DNA of 64,000 bases from a virus (taxonomy: Duplodnaviria > Heunggongvirae > Uroviricota > Caudoviricetes). Location of the stretch: IMG/VR virus record IMGVR_UViG_2639762834_000007; one strand, 5' to 3'. Positions within the stretch are counted from its first letter, which is position 1; each line of letters begins with the position of its first letter. Below are positions 30,001 through 36,000 of this stretch, piece by piece. Position numbers: made by a program.

Positions 30001-33000
30001 GTTGTGGCTGTCCAAGAGAACCCCGATGCCTTCGCAAAACTGTTCTTTGATGCTGCGCGCCGCTTAGATGCCGTTCAAGGTCAGGCGGGCTTCGCCGTCA
30101 ACCTTTCCCCGACCGCTCCTCACGAGAATGAGGCGACGGAATACTGGATCGCGCAAATTATGCCGGGGCTCGATGTCGGCGACCCCGGATCGACTTCAGC
30201 CCGCGATCTGAAGGGCAAAATTAAATCCGTCAATTGGCTGACAGCCATCGGCAAGCCCATGTTGGACACCGTCGGCGGTGTTCGCGCGCTGACGTCGGAA
30301 CTCCCTCCGAATTGGTTTGCCATTGGTGATTACGGTGCCGGCGTTATCGTCCGTGCGGGCGTATTGCCTGAGTCGGGTCTCTCCGAGCGCGAGGAGCAAC
30401 CCCCGTTCTTGCCACCGGCCTACGTCGTCCTCGATAAGGCGCTGCGGCGCGTGCGAGCGGAAAGCATGGACATTCTTCAGCGCGGCACGGTCAACGCCGG
30501 CGCGCCAGTCTACAACACGCGAGAATCAACGGCAGCGTGGCTGCGCCGCTTCGAGGTGGGCGACGACGAATTGCTCAGTGCGAAGGCTGCGATTCTCAAA
30601 ACGCCGCGTTTGCCCAAAGGCTCGATTCCGAGCAGTAGTGGCGATCCAGTCTGACGCATCGGCAGTTCGCCGCGCCGCTCCCGTTTTGGGCGGGCAGCAG
30701 GTGGCCGGCGAGAGTGGCGTTCGCCACAGTCGAGCAGGTCTTCGTATCTCATCGAGAAAGTTCTGGTCGTTCATCTTTTGTCCCTGCTACGTGATGCGAT
30801 AGAACGCCTCTTCGCCGCGCTCGACTTCAAGGATGCGCTTTAACTGGTCGAGCGCGAATAGCTCCATCCCACGTTTCTCTGCCTCAGCTCGAGCTGCGTC
30901 GACGAGCTTTCGCGATTTTCCAACAATGTTGTTTCGCAAATATGCGATCTCGAGAGCCATGCGTTGCTCGAGCGTATGCCGGCCGACCTTCTTGCCTTCC
31001 TCGAGACGCCATTTTTCGCGCAGTTCAGCCCACGTTACCCGCTGAAATTGCGGGATTGATTTCGGCGATGCGCCGGGCGGCGCGTCGTCTGGCGACTCCC
31101 AGCGCTTAGACTTGAGCTCTTCGCGGGCACGCCACTCGTCCGAAAAGGGCGCGACCGGTTCTCGCATACGGGCGAACGGCGCGGCACGATCGATTTCCTT
31201 CTCGACAATGTAGCCGAGCCTCCGTAGCGGCGCGCCATACTCGAGCAACGACGGGTCAATTGCGCGCGCCCGCCGCGACGCATCTGCGATGCAACTGCGG
31301 AGCTCCCACAACGTGAGGCGTTGGTGTTGAACTTCGAGAATCAGCCGTTGGACGTCTGCATACGTGCAGCGCGTCCACCACTCGGTCATCTCGGGTAGCT
31401 TGGGCGGGTTGAACGGTGGTAGGATCATTTCGTAATATGAGAAAACCTGTAATTTTATACAGTATATCTTGGACTATGATGAAGTGATCCATCCCCCGAA
31501 AAGAGGTGCCGTCGTGTGCACCAACTATCGCGCCCCCGACGAAGATCCGGGTATCAGCGAGCTACGGCTTGGTCTGATCGATCTATGGAAGAGAACGCCT
31601 TGGGAGTCGGAGATTTACCCGGACTATCTTGCGCCTACGGTGGCGCTGATCGACGGGCGCGTCGAGGCGTTCCTTGCGGGGTTCGGCTACTGGCCGCGCG
31701 CCTTGCAGAAAGCGAACATCGAGAGAGCGAAGGCCGAGGGAAAAGTGCCGCCGATCATGCGTAGCACGATGAACGTGCGCGACGACAATCTCGGGCGATC
31801 GCCGCTTTACGGGCCGGCATGGCGTGCGGGGCGTCGCTGTTTGATTCCGGCGCAGTGGATTTACGAACCGTGCTATGAAACCGGCCGAAACGTCTGGCAC
31901 CGAATCGGCCTGACGAGCTGGCGGCCCTATTGCGTTGCAGGGATCTGGCGTACGCTGACGGGCGCGGATGGGAACGATCTGCACACGATGGCGATGATCA
32001 CCGTCAACGCCGAGGGCGATCCGCTCATGTCGCGCATGCATAAGCCCGGAGACGAAAAGCGATCGGTCGTCATACTCCGGCCGGACGATTGGGAAGAATG
32101 GCTCTCGACCGGAAATATCGACGCCGCGCGCGCTATGTTGCAGCTTTACTCGGCCGACGAACTCGTTGCAGCCCCAAGATAGCTTTGTTAGTTACACTAA
32201 AGCTCGCTGACTGTGGGCTCTTTTGCTACAGCACGGAGCGGGAGGCTCGTCGGACGAGGCATTTGGTTGTCGTGCACATCTGAATTGTGGGGGAATCGCC
32301 GGGCTCCCAGATTCCCGGCGCTGTCTCATTGCGGCCAGAAACGGTCGTTCTGAAATCGTCGGCACATCGTTGGCGACTCATGCCCTGAGACAACACCGCC
32401 AGCATATGGACACCAATCGACGTGAGCGAAATCGAACGCTGGGAGGACTAGCCGCCTTATCCCTCCTCACACTGCATCGCTGGCTCCGCTATCGGGGGCT
32501 AGTGCGGATGTGGGGGCAACCAGACTCCTTGCAAACGCTGACGCGACGCGTTTTCCCGATGCCAAGTAGTTTTGAAGGTCAGTCGTTGTGACGTTGGCAA
32601 ATGACGCGTTCAGGTTATGAACGAAAGAGTGCCGTGTATTAAGCAGGCTCTCATACGCTGCGAAAATATCGGCGCTGCCGGACGCGAGTCGCCGCTGGTT
32701 CAACCTGTTAACGAGCCTAACGAAATCCTTCTCGAATGCTGTGTCGAATCTCGCTAAAAGATCTCTCAGCGCTTTATACCTGATTCTGGCATTGAATTTT
32801 GCTAAGTCGGCTTCGAGGACCGCGTGAAGGTATCTGTTCTGTTTGTCACAAAAGTCGAGGACAACGCTCTTGATTAGCGTTTCCAGATGCGTTGCGATGG
32901 TTACAGCACAGAAACCAATGTAGCGGTCCCTGAGGGGGTCAGATGCTAAGTTATCGACCTGTTCACAAAGATGGTCGACTAAAGCATCCACTGCGACAAT

Positions 33001-36000
33001 CTCAGTCGCATTGAGCTTCATTTTTGGTCGAACAGCAAAGCTGTCGCCCGATCAAAGCGGGTATGGACTTTTTCAATTGCATTTGTACCCTGCGAGATCG
33101 AATTCAGAAAATCCTTGTCAGCGCGGAGCTTCGCGTAGCCCACATCAAGGGGCGAATCGGTGGTCCTTTGAACATCGCTCAAGCAGCTGCAGAAAGTGGC
33201 TTCAAGCATCGCGGAATTGATCGGACCGCCTCGCTGGAACGGCGCGCCCGGGAGCTTTGTCGCAAGCTGCTTCGCCACTTCCGGGAAGTTCTTCGTGAAC
33301 GCGGCCACGGCCTCGGACTTCGCGTCTCGGTTCCGGTACATGCATGAACTAAGAAAGTCCTTCATCTTGCCGTCATACTGATCTCTGAAATACGTCAGTG
33401 CAAAGACTCTTAGTAGCAGCTCAACGTCACGCATGTGCTTGTCCGGCAGATCTTTCCCCAGCAGCCTCCTCCAGTCTTCGATCTCGTTGAATTGCTTCAG
33501 CAAGTCGTTGAAAGCACCGCGGTACACTGCGTTGCGGATCTCCTGCGATTTCAGCGGCGTACCGCCAGTGTTCAGGCGCTCAAAGATCTGATACACGCTG
33601 CTATTGTCAGCTTCCGGCTTGAGTTGCCGGATGTTAATGGCTCGTAGAGGTGCGCTCTTGAGTTTACGTTGGGTCGTTGCGTCCAACTCGGAGAAGGTTC
33701 TTTTGTCGTACGGACTTTTGTCGGAGAGCCCCGTCAGCCTGAACACCTTTCGAGTTCCGCGAGACTCGTTTCCAAAGAAGCCCTCAAAGAAATAGGCAAT
33801 CGACGTGATGCGCTGCTGCCCGTCGATCACGATTAACTTGTGGTCGTCGTCGACGTACAGAAACACTTGCGGTATGGGTAGCCCAACAAGAAACGACTCG
33901 ATCAGCTTCGACGCCTGCTCTATGTTCCAGACGTAACCGCGCTGGAAATCGGGAACGACGAGTTCGCCGGCCTTCCACTGATCATAGAGGACCGAAAGCG
34001 TGAAATCCGTCGGATAGGAGGTCAGACTGTATTCGTGATACCTCTCGTCTCCCTCGTCGGTTTCATCTTCAAGCTCAAGCTCGTTAGCCTTGTCGTTCGC
34101 CATGACGTCCTCTATTGTCGCTACGCGATGGACGCGCAGCAGCCGCTGTTTTGAGCAGTTTATCATGTGGTGATCGAGCATCAGCGAGCGAATCAGGGAG
34201 CGATGATTTCGGACATCGAGCGGCCGTTTTGGAGATGGGCGTCTGACTGTTCCGGGTCGACGCCGGCCGTCCCTGAAAAGGCGCCCCAAGTCGGAGCGCG
34301 GCGTTTGTAGCAATGGCGTCGTAACGCTGGCAAGATTTGGGGAGGAATCTGGGGAGGAATGAGGGTAGTGGAGGGGCATGTCCGGATCCCCATTTCCACA
34401 AAAAACAAAGCTTTACGCCCCGCCAGCCCCTTGCAAAACCCTCGCTTTTGCGTTCGAAACCCATCGAAGGTTCGTTCGTTGCTGCAGGCTACTGTTCTTT
34501 GAACTGGGGCGGAAGAGGGTATTCGAGCGGCGAAGACTGAGATCGGGATGACGAACAATGACAGGAATTAGGATTGCACTGCCCGCGAACCCTTAATTTT
34601 CAGACGGTCCTCGGGGGTTCGAATCCCCCTCTCTCCGCCAGAACACCTTCCGAGCGGTTCCGCTCGATTCTCGTAGATCCCCCGAGGCGCCTTATCTGGC
34701 GGCGTTTTGGGGGTGTCAATCCTCTTGTCCGTTCCGCCCCGTCCCGACACAATCTACCCATCGAATGGGGGTAAGTGAAGTGGTCAAGCAACTTTGGACA
34801 CTGCTCCGGGATAGGCTGCGAGCGCTTCGAAACGCGCTGGCGGCAGTCCCTTCGCAGCCGAGTGAAGGCGACGATGGTTGTAAAAATCGACTAGATAATC
34901 AGTGATGTCTTGCTCTGCATGGCGGTGATCGACGTACAACTGGTCGCCGATCCATTCATTTTTGAGGCTTCGGAAGAAGCGCTCGACCACCGCGTTGTCC
35001 CAACAGTTGCCGCGCCGACTCATGCTCTGGATCGTGCCACGGGCGCGCAGCTCGGCGAGAAAGCGCGTGCTCGTGTATTGGCAGCCCTGATCCGAATGGA
35101 ACATCAGGCCTGGTAGCGGACGACGATGATCGTAAGCCCGTCTTAATGCCTTTAGTGCCAAGTCGGTGTCCGCGTGCTGACTAAACGCCCAGCCCACCAC
35201 GCGGCGCGCGTACTGGGGGAGCTTGCCGTCCCATTTCTCGATCGCCATCTGTTGCAGGATTTGGCTGTTCTCGCGTAGTGCTTTCGCTTTCACCTCGAGC
35301 GCTTCGGCCTCGCCCTTGGCGATCGCGACTTGCTTTGCCGCGTCCGCCTCGGCTGCACGCAGTTCGTTCTCCTTCTGCTGCGCGATCTGCGTCGCTGCGA
35401 TCTTCCCGTTGATCGAGTTCATGACCTGCTCGGGGAGGCGCATCTGATTCACGAAATAGACCTTCTCGACACTGATTCCGACCTTCGCGGCGTTCGCCTT
35501 TACCTCGTCCTCGACGCGCTGCTGTAGCGCCGCCTTGCCCCTGCCGTAGACGTCCTCGACCGCCATCGACGCGCCGGCGAGATTCAGGGCGTCGCGCACG
35601 ATCGCGCGCAGGTAGACGCCCGTGATCTCATCGACTCCGCGCCGATACTTCTGGAACACCTTGGGCGCGTTCTCACGCGGGATCGCGTAGCTCACGCCGA
35701 TGTCGGTGTTGACCGACAGCCCCTCCACCGTCTGGAACGTGAACGACTCGTCGGACTTGCCAGCTTTGTCCCACACGTAGGACTGCGTGAACGGCGGGAA
35801 GATGAACATGTCGACGTTGGGCCCGTTGAAGTAGCGACCGGGCCCCTTCACTTCGACGTTGACGCCGCGGTCGTCGCCGTAGCGTTGCACCTTCACACCG
35901 ACGTAGCCGGCCGGGACGTTATCGCAGCCGGCCGCGAGGAACATCGTCGGCGCGAGGATCAGAATCAGAAACAGGCGTTTCACTTGGTCTCCTTGAAATG

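Follow-up and report, generated by a model that had tools for sequence, protein, structure and literature searches.

We found that a Burkholderia prophage, held in the viral record IMGVR_UViG_2639762834_000007, carries two adjacent genes, A and B, that encode a DUF262 (GmrSD_N) protein and a small HEPN protein. The stretch of this record that we analysed (the window, 64,000 nucleotides) is 100% identical to contig KN323013.1 of assembly GCA_000774385.1. Proteins in the database that are identical to A and B come from the Burkholderia pseudomallei group, and the domain annotation of both is already present in NCBI. Translation of genes A and B is coupled, both are inherited and exchanged together, and the two co-evolve. 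We think that the pair is probably an anti-phage module of the PD-T4-2 type, self-contained with its two genes, which a prophage related to phage phi644-2 carries as exchangeable cargo. This reading is the best supported because of the family matches, the predicted folds, the conservation and co-evolution of the pair, and its place as swappable prophage cargo; three other explanations, taken up below, are less well supported. An earlier note on this DNA had also proposed an anti-phage module, with a HEPN protein in place of a DNase. That proposal stands as the best-supported reading, but three of its particulars do not: that the pairing was experimentally uncharacterised, that B belongs to the MAE_28990 family of HEPN proteins, and that the genes lie next to attR.

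PD-T4-2, whose domains are given as 'DUF262, HEPN', was recovered from E. coli ECOR65 by functional selection (Vassallo et al. 2022, PMC9519451). Cloned in K-12, it lowers plaquing by T4, and its deletion from ECOR65 restores T4 plaquing (PMC9519451); the pairing was validated against T4 in this way in 2022. In the HHpred analysis of that study, the first protein matched DUF262 (99.7%) and the second matched HEPN_RiboL-PSP (97.8%), with MAE_28990 as the second-best match (PMC9519451). The ECOR65 proteins are RCO39066.1 and the product of an unannotated open reading frame (ORF), QOYX01000002:338334-339873. RiboL-PSP HEPN proteins in an operon with ParB, and with a conserved Rx4-6H motif, had been described in 2013 (Anantharaman et al., PMC3710099). 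B belongs to that family. The 2013 description was prediction only, and the family takes its name from a fusion to endoRNase L-PSP that is absent here. In reviews, PD-T4-2, Menshen and Dazbog are grouped as systems with DUF262 that lack DUF1524 and whose mechanism is uncharacterised, and a published survey of ParB-DUF262 loci keeps PD-T4-2 separate from Menshen.

The locus in the window is a diverged example of this DUF262 plus HEPN (PD-T4-2-type) kind and not a new system. Like PD-T4-2, it is a two-gene operon in which a DUF262/GmrSD_N protein of ~360 amino acids (aa) without DUF1524 is followed by a HEPN_RiboL-PSP protein of ~165-185 aa. It differs in its Burkholderia host, in its siphovirus prophage carrier, and in its diverged B, which has a 12-aa C-terminal tail.

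The earlier note had described two minus-strand genes joined by an ATGA overlap, and the overlap and the coordinates of both genes hold (Table 1). In relatives, the distance between the two genes ranges from -56 to +11 nt. Gene A has an alternative, longer ORF that extends to 34379. We prefer the ATG at 34103 (MANDK...) because homologues of A are 355-365 aa long and their alignment begins at residue 1, because a GAGGA lies 5 nt upstream of this ATG, and because the NCBI annotation has a 361-aa product with 100% identity to A.

Table 1. Positions in the window of the gene pair, its motifs and the surrounding features.
Feature	Coordinates	Strand	Description
Gene A	33018..34103	(-)	361-aa ParB-DUF262 (GmrSD_N) protein; helical C-terminal domain; no DUF1524/His-Me nuclease
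Gene B	32467..33021	(-)	184-aa HEPN protein of the RiboL-PSP family; predicted RNase effector
ATGA stop/start overlap of A and B	33018..33021	(-)	Translational coupling; visible in the sequence
Motif I of A, QRxxxW	33927..33944	(-)	QRGYVW, aa 54-59; Q54, R55 and W59 invariant across alignments of A homologues
Motif II of A, DGQQR	33810..33824	(-)	aa 94-98; invariant in 30-sequence alignment; predicted NTP-binding/hydrolysis centre
Motif III of A, FxxxN	33570..33584	(-)	FERLN, aa 174-178; extended as IFERLNTGGTPL (FERLN/LNTGGTPL, aa 174-184); invariant in 30-sequence alignment
HEPN Rx4H catalytic motif of B	32617..32634	(-)	RHSFVH, R130...H135, within NTRHSFVHN (aa 128-136)
Region upstream of A	34104..34259	(-)	Travels with the cassette, inside the shared 1928-bp block; presumed to hold its own promoter and ribosome-binding site
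Cassette as mobile unit	32332..34259	(-)	A and B with 155 bp upstream and 135 bp downstream; 1928 bp
tRNA-Ser 3' fragment	34601..34640	(+)	T-arm and acceptor, ends in CCA; att-like breakpoint inside the phage

Protein A matched PF03235 (GmrSD_N/DUF262) at 5e-32, its sole Pfam match at E<=1. It also matched PHROG 2598 (1e-77). The motifs of ParB-DUF262 proteins have been defined as QRxxxW, DGxQR and FxxxN (PMC12065111). All three are present in A, as the earlier note had read, and are invariant in the family. DUF1524 was not found in A by Pfam at E<=1, and the protein ends at 361 aa after a helical domain; the earlier claim that the usual nuclease is missing was therefore correct. The AlphaFold2 (AF2) model of A (pLDDT 76, with low confidence at residues 1-31) is alpha/beta in its N-terminal half and helical in its C-terminal half. 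Its best Foldseek matches among solved structures were BrxU (E 5e-5), SspE and the ParB/Noc/KorB CTPases, and BrxU was the only relative of A found in a sequence profile search of the PDB. The helical C-terminal domain has been named the DNA-binding ParBDB domain in a published analysis of the NsnA family. Judged from its sequence, A is a ParB-DUF262 protein of the nucleoside triphosphatase (NTPase) type, with a helical C-terminal domain and without a nuclease domain. A role for motif II in nucleoside triphosphate (NTP) hydrolysis is predicted by analogy with BrxU, SspE and HEC-06.

Among PADLOC models, A matched NsnA of Menshen best (1.6e-71, 240 bits, near full length). It also matched PD-T4-2_A (3e-49, 166 bits), with residues 48-356 of the protein covering positions 52-360 of the 363 in the model. 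The domain order of A, ParB-DUF262 followed by a helical C-terminal domain, is indeed that of Type I NsnA. The logic proposed for Menshen (NsnABC; Millman 2022; Li et al. 2025, PMC12065111) is also the same, a DUF262 sensor with an RNase effector. The locus might then be a degenerate Menshen, in which an orphan NsnA has lost the NsnB ATPase and the NsnC effector and B is an unrelated neighbour. We consider this extremely improbable. NsnA was the top PADLOC match for every short DUF262 protein with a HEPN partner, and the model is for this reason generic. The HEPN partner is conserved and co-evolves with A across phyla. Scans of the neighbouring genes with Pfam and PADLOC revealed no NsnB (ABC-ATPase/DUF3696) and no NsnC within +/-5 kb. 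Unlike Menshen, the locus has two genes, with no NsnB ABC-ATPase transducer and with a HEPN partner where Menshen has the inPIN-BECR protein NsnC. We rejected a Menshen identity on these grounds.

Protein B matched PF18735 (HEPN_RiboL-PSP) at 8.4e-12, with 45.8 bits against a gathering score of 28.4. Chance does not account for either this match or that of A to PF03235. PF18737 (HEPN_MAE_28990), the family named in the earlier note, was not among its Pfam matches at E<=1. The sequence of B thus places it in the RiboL-PSP family of HEPN proteins, with an intact Rx4H site. The predicted fold of B resembles HEPN toxins, Csm6 and AbiA, and is closest to the HEPN toxins of toxin-antitoxin (TA) systems (HEPN-MNT). 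The model has the four-helix up-down bundle core that, together with a conserved Rx4-6H motif, characterises the HEPN superfamily. A sequence profile search of the PDB returned no solved relative of B. The structural comparison that the earlier note had called for, a ParB-like fold for A and a HEPN fold for B, thus came out as predicted in the models of both proteins, and its assignment of B to HEPN with an Rx4H motif agrees with the Pfam match and with the invariance of NTRHSFVHN.

We surveyed relatives of A using one genome per species. There were at least 589, and we checked the pairing in the best 80. These 80 proteins are 43-54% identical to A and come from Proteobacteria, Bacteroidota, Acidobacteriota, Chloroflexota, Omnitrophota, Actinomycetota and one archaeon. 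At approximately 70 of the 80 loci, the gene right after the A homologue encodes a protein of 166-186 aa that is matched by a hidden Markov model of B's family (1e-10 to 1e-24). We collected 75 partner proteins, including partners from an E. coli P2-like phage, an Akkermansia phage and E. coli IncX1 plasmids, and PF18735 matched all of them (75/75). PF18737 matched one of the 75. From its second place for PD-T4-2B, it is a related family.

The two proteins have diverged in step. Pairwise identities of A and B were strongly correlated across 65 pairs (r = 0.91, Mantel p = 0.001), and B was the faster-evolving partner (mean identity 39%, vs 53% for A). No third component was conserved within 3 kb at 78 loci, and the largest cluster of neighbours occurred in 6 loci. 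In viral contigs of IMG/VR we found 172 relatives of A, most of the closer ones with a HEPN partner beside them, and relatives of the pair are often on prophages and plasmids. Among the records of the phage collection there was no close relative of A; the best was a protein of an Akkermansia phage with 32% identity. Because of the conserved adjacency, the co-evolution, the lack of a third gene and the spread on viral contigs, we regard A and B as a self-contained, horizontally mobile two-gene module. The survey shows DUF262 plus RiboL-PSP HEPN to be a two-gene unit that is very widespread and that co-evolves tightly.

B has 15 close homologues (49-64% identity), the only ones found for its sublineage, and they were always on the contigs of the closest A homologues. 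R130-H-S-F-V-H135, T44, H45 and E47 are invariant among them. E47 is also the same in all 75 partner proteins, at least 90% of which keep R130 and H135. The conserved Rx4H residues and the invariant E47 argue for a catalytically active RNase. The sublineage of B is only 21-27% identical to the main clade of 168-aa partners, and B is 17% identical end to end to the partner from an E. coli IncX1 plasmid in a pairwise BLASTP comparison, which aligns RHSFVH with RHAFAH. A comparison by hhalign of the 15-sequence HEPN alignment with one E. coli partner sequence did not reach significance, because the profile was too shallow (effective number of sequences, Neff, 2.2). Searching the phage and plasmid collections with B by tblastn gave no match even at E<=1. 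B is beyond the reach of pairwise search because it is too diverged.

None of the PADLOC models for HEPN components, PD-T4-2_B included, matched B at E<=1, so that a PADLOC check of the locus succeeds for A (PD-T4-2_A) and fails for B. We found that PD-T4-2_B misses 74 of the 75 HEPN partners of A homologues and reaches only 2e-4 on the partner from the NRG857C prophage and 4e-4 on that from the Akkermansia phage. Since all 75 are positive for PF18735, we take the model to be narrow and not a test of the kind. The PD-T4-2-type system is probably under-called by the PADLOC B model, because a model of the only validated representative misses nearly all of the partners that we tried.

At least two other DUF262 plus HEPN pairs were seen in E. 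coli. The IncX1 plasmid p94EC-4 carries a diverged pair (3429-5069) directly after the replication initiation gene, and 755 plasmid records, mostly from Escherichia, Salmonella, Klebsiella or Shigella, match protein A. Another diverged pair lies in a lambdoid prophage remnant of E. coli NRG 857C (3840-5556 of the examined stretch), and this prophage-remnant pair was found in 31 of 5,426 complete E. coli genomes. Neither E. coli pair was usefully scored by PD-T4-2_B.

Several of these observations would also fit a TA or addiction module, with B as a HEPN RNase toxin and A as its antitoxin, whose main role would be to stabilise the prophage or cassette by post-segregational killing and not to respond to phage. 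The closest structural matches of B are HEPN toxins of TA systems, the two genes are tightly coupled and are found on mobile elements (among them the E. coli IncX1 plasmids, where they lie beside a replication gene), and the same phage carries RelE/ParE-type TA genes. A, however, is a large (361 aa) and highly conserved protein of the NTPase type, with intact catalytic motifs, unlike the known HEPN antitoxins, which are MNT nucleotidyltransferases; and the homologous architecture of PD-T4-2 protects against phage. We therefore consider an addiction module unlikely. The antitoxin-first gene order fits either reading, and TA function and abortive infection are not mutually exclusive.

We found that the cassette occupies a site at which related phages differ. 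The prophage is 96-98% identical to Burkholderia phage phi644-2 and is circularly permuted relative to the virion map. Window positions 28000-32112 correspond to phi644-2 23688-27800, and 34253-36351 correspond to 30245-32346. Between them, window 32113-34252, containing the cassette, stands in place of phi644-2 27801-30244, which carries gp33-gp35, genes of unknown function, none of which matched a PADLOC model. In phi1026b, phiE125, PhiBP82.1 and all other related Burkholderia phages, similarity to the window is lost at the same left point, just past the SRAP gene. The name of this SRAP domain (PF02586) is the only basis for the earlier description of the neighbouring genes as SOS-regulated.

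The cassette was also found at a different position in other Burkholderia prophage contigs (L089-L091), where 32332-34259 is 99.8% identical. There it lies between a gene for a 215-aa or Dam-like protein and a gene for a 174-aa protein, near a helix-turn-helix/ParE pair. Because the same block occurs nearly unchanged at a second prophage position, we conclude that the cassette moves as a 1.93-kb unit. The earlier note had described a low-GC islet of ~50% against ~65% for the flanks. The GC content (guanine plus cytosine) is indeed lower than that of the surroundings, but the difference is smaller than described: 52.8% for the gene pair and 53.5% for the cassette, against 60-63% for the prophage flanks (62.6% on the left) and 64.7% for the chromosome.

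The earlier placement next to attR did not survive comparison with phi644-2. The window contains no intact tRNA. It does contain a 3' fragment of tRNA-Ser (Table 1), and this fragment is also present in the virion DNA of phi644-2; phage identity continues past it, in blocks, to ~38268. We rejected the fragment as the attR of this prophage because identity to phi644-2 runs across it. In two other strains (L087 and L092), the match to the window breaks off precisely at 34640, the CCA end, beside a gene for a 642-aa protein without a Pfam match. Since similarity in these strains ends at its CCA, we regard the fragment as an att-like breakpoint. The cassette is in a variable cargo slot by this relic att-like site, roughly 4 kb inside the right end of the prophage.

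A mechanism can be proposed by analogy with GmrSD, BrxU and SspE, in which the DUF262 NTPase detects (modified) invading DNA and activates a fused DUF1524 DNase. A resembles these proteins in its N-terminal ParB-DUF262 NTPase domain, its QRxxxW/DGxQR/FxxxN motifs and its counterpart of their helical DNA-binding middle domain, and BrxU is its best match in the PDB by both structure and sequence. They differ from the pair in being single chains with a DUF1524 His-Me nuclease, whereas the pair has a separate effector of the HEPN (RNase) type, which would occupy the place of the DUF1524 DNase. In such a scheme, A would sense a feature of the infecting phage DNA and, by binding or hydrolysing NTP, would release or activate B, with which it is probably complexed until then. 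B would next cleave RNA (tRNA, mRNA or rRNA) at a composite Rx4H site formed in a HEPN dimer. Cleavage may stop translation and abort the infection, which would spare both the resident prophage and the population of lysogens. The predicted target is RNA and not DNA because the effector is a separate HEPN protein and DUF1524 is absent.

The kinship with DNA-acting enzymes could be taken further. 'ParB-like nuclease' was the first annotation given to the ParB/DUF262 domain; BrxU and SspE, the solved structures most closely related to A, act on DNA; and PD-T4-2 was selected on T4, which has glucosyl-hydroxymethylcytosine (glucosyl-hmC) DNA. In a DNA-targeting system resembling type IV restriction, A itself would attack modified phage DNA as a ParB-like nuclease or nickase, and B would bind nucleic acid as a subunit with a non-catalytic or regulatory role. 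GmrSD, BrxU and SspE, however, cleave DNA by means of DUF1524, which A lacks, with DUF262 as the NTPase or sensor, and a non-catalytic B is at odds with the conservation of its Rx4H residues and E47 across the 75 partners. This explanation seems to us very unlikely.

Several points weigh against our assignment of the pair to anti-phage defence of the PD-T4-2 type. A scores higher against NsnA than against PD-T4-2_A in PADLOC (240 vs 166 bits). B does not match PD-T4-2_B at E<=1, which is the operational rule for calling the system; it appears to lie outside the narrow PD-T4-2_B sequence family and inside the same Pfam family and architecture. The ECOR65 prototype was not returned by tblastn against phages and plasmids or by distant blastn against the 5,426 E. 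coli genomes; these searches returned other DUF262 plus HEPN pairs (P2_4B2, the IncX1 plasmids and the NRG857C prophage). We thus infer the homology of B to PD-T4-2B from a shared Pfam family, size and position, and not from a direct comparison with ECOR65. In the AF2 model of A, the stretch of low confidence at residues 160-193 covers the FERLN/LNTGG motif. A scan for sigma-70 consensus sequences upstream of A gave no match, so the promoter placed in 34104..34259 is presumed; a terminator consensus scan of the locus was uninformative. We found no paper on the mechanism of PD-T4-2 in the literature searched, and it is by analogy that we infer the trigger, the RNA target, the A-B complex and the choice between abortive infection and direct immunity. 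On the other side stand the features by which a PD-T4-2-type pair can be recognised: A is a DUF262/GmrSD_N protein without DUF1524, with motifs I-III and a predicted fold like those of BrxU, SspE and ParB; the next gene downstream on that strand, joined to A by the ATGA overlap, encodes a RiboL-PSP HEPN protein; and A matches PD-T4-2_A.

It is tempting to extend the anti-phage reading to the whole set of pairs. Short DUF262 proteins with RiboL-PSP HEPN partners of ~168 aa, present in hundreds of species and including the Burkholderia sublineage, could be a defence family that profile-based finders largely miss and that joins a DNA sensor in the style of type IV restriction to an RNase output, maybe with a trigger other than glucosyl-hmC. 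We offer this as a tentative idea, and a rather doubtful one. To our knowledge, glucosyl-hmC DNA is not known in Burkholderia phages, and for this reason the trigger may differ from it; another DNA modification or a replication intermediate may serve.

With this locus, the variable region of prophages of the B. pseudomallei group gains a cargo pair of the defence type, which is of relevance to superinfection exclusion and to the choice of phages for therapy or diagnostics. By itself the locus opens no new question; the kind was noted computationally in 2013 and validated in 2022. What the analysis adds is a clean cassette swap among prophages of this group, 99.8% identical between prophage positions, the breadth and tight co-evolution of the pair, and the failure of the PADLOC B model on nearly all of the partners. 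Any tractable member of the PD-T4-2 type would be useful for working out the trigger, the RNA target and the in-trans control of a HEPN RNase by an NTPase.

The window contains other genes of note. To the left of the cassette, at 28244-30654 (+), are three cargo genes with matches to PAAR (PF05488, 3.6e-21), weakly to VRR-NUC (6.7e-4), and to the TsiV immunity protein (PF11876, 6e-64). This trio resembles a type VI secretion effector/immunity set of a phi644-2-like phage. The TsiV protein also matches the PADLOC candidate PDC-M20B (3e-15).

To the right of the cassette, 34784-36196 (-) is a chimeric ORF, annotated as 'lipoprotein' in phi644-2, with an SPFH/Band7 N-terminal part and a C-terminal part like an rve transposase of the insertion sequence (IS) type. 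Of the rve part, 347 bp recur in inverted orientation at 39991-40337 with 99.7% identity, pointing to an IS insertion or a rearrangement. The adjacent ORF at 36181-36966 (+) had a weak match to DUF4145, a HEPN-type domain (4.9e-4, under the gathering score), with the motif LRELREIRNRAAH, and had no PADLOC match. Its start is probably internal (MTGCDMDW...) and is followed by a hydrophobic segment. The ORF lies in a second block, 36352-37043, that differs from phi644-2 (phage 32347-32985) and that may be a second cargo slot with another HEPN-like gene.

Similarity to phi644-2 ends at ~38268 (phage 34538). Pieces of the right end of phi644-2 (phage 47353-47398 and 48229-48446) recur at window 39695-39992 and are a possible remnant of a second phage. 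Farther right, outside the prophage, 47233-63190 (-) holds two ORFs of 4131 aa and 1192 aa, presumably part of a cluster for a non-ribosomal peptide or polyketide synthetase.

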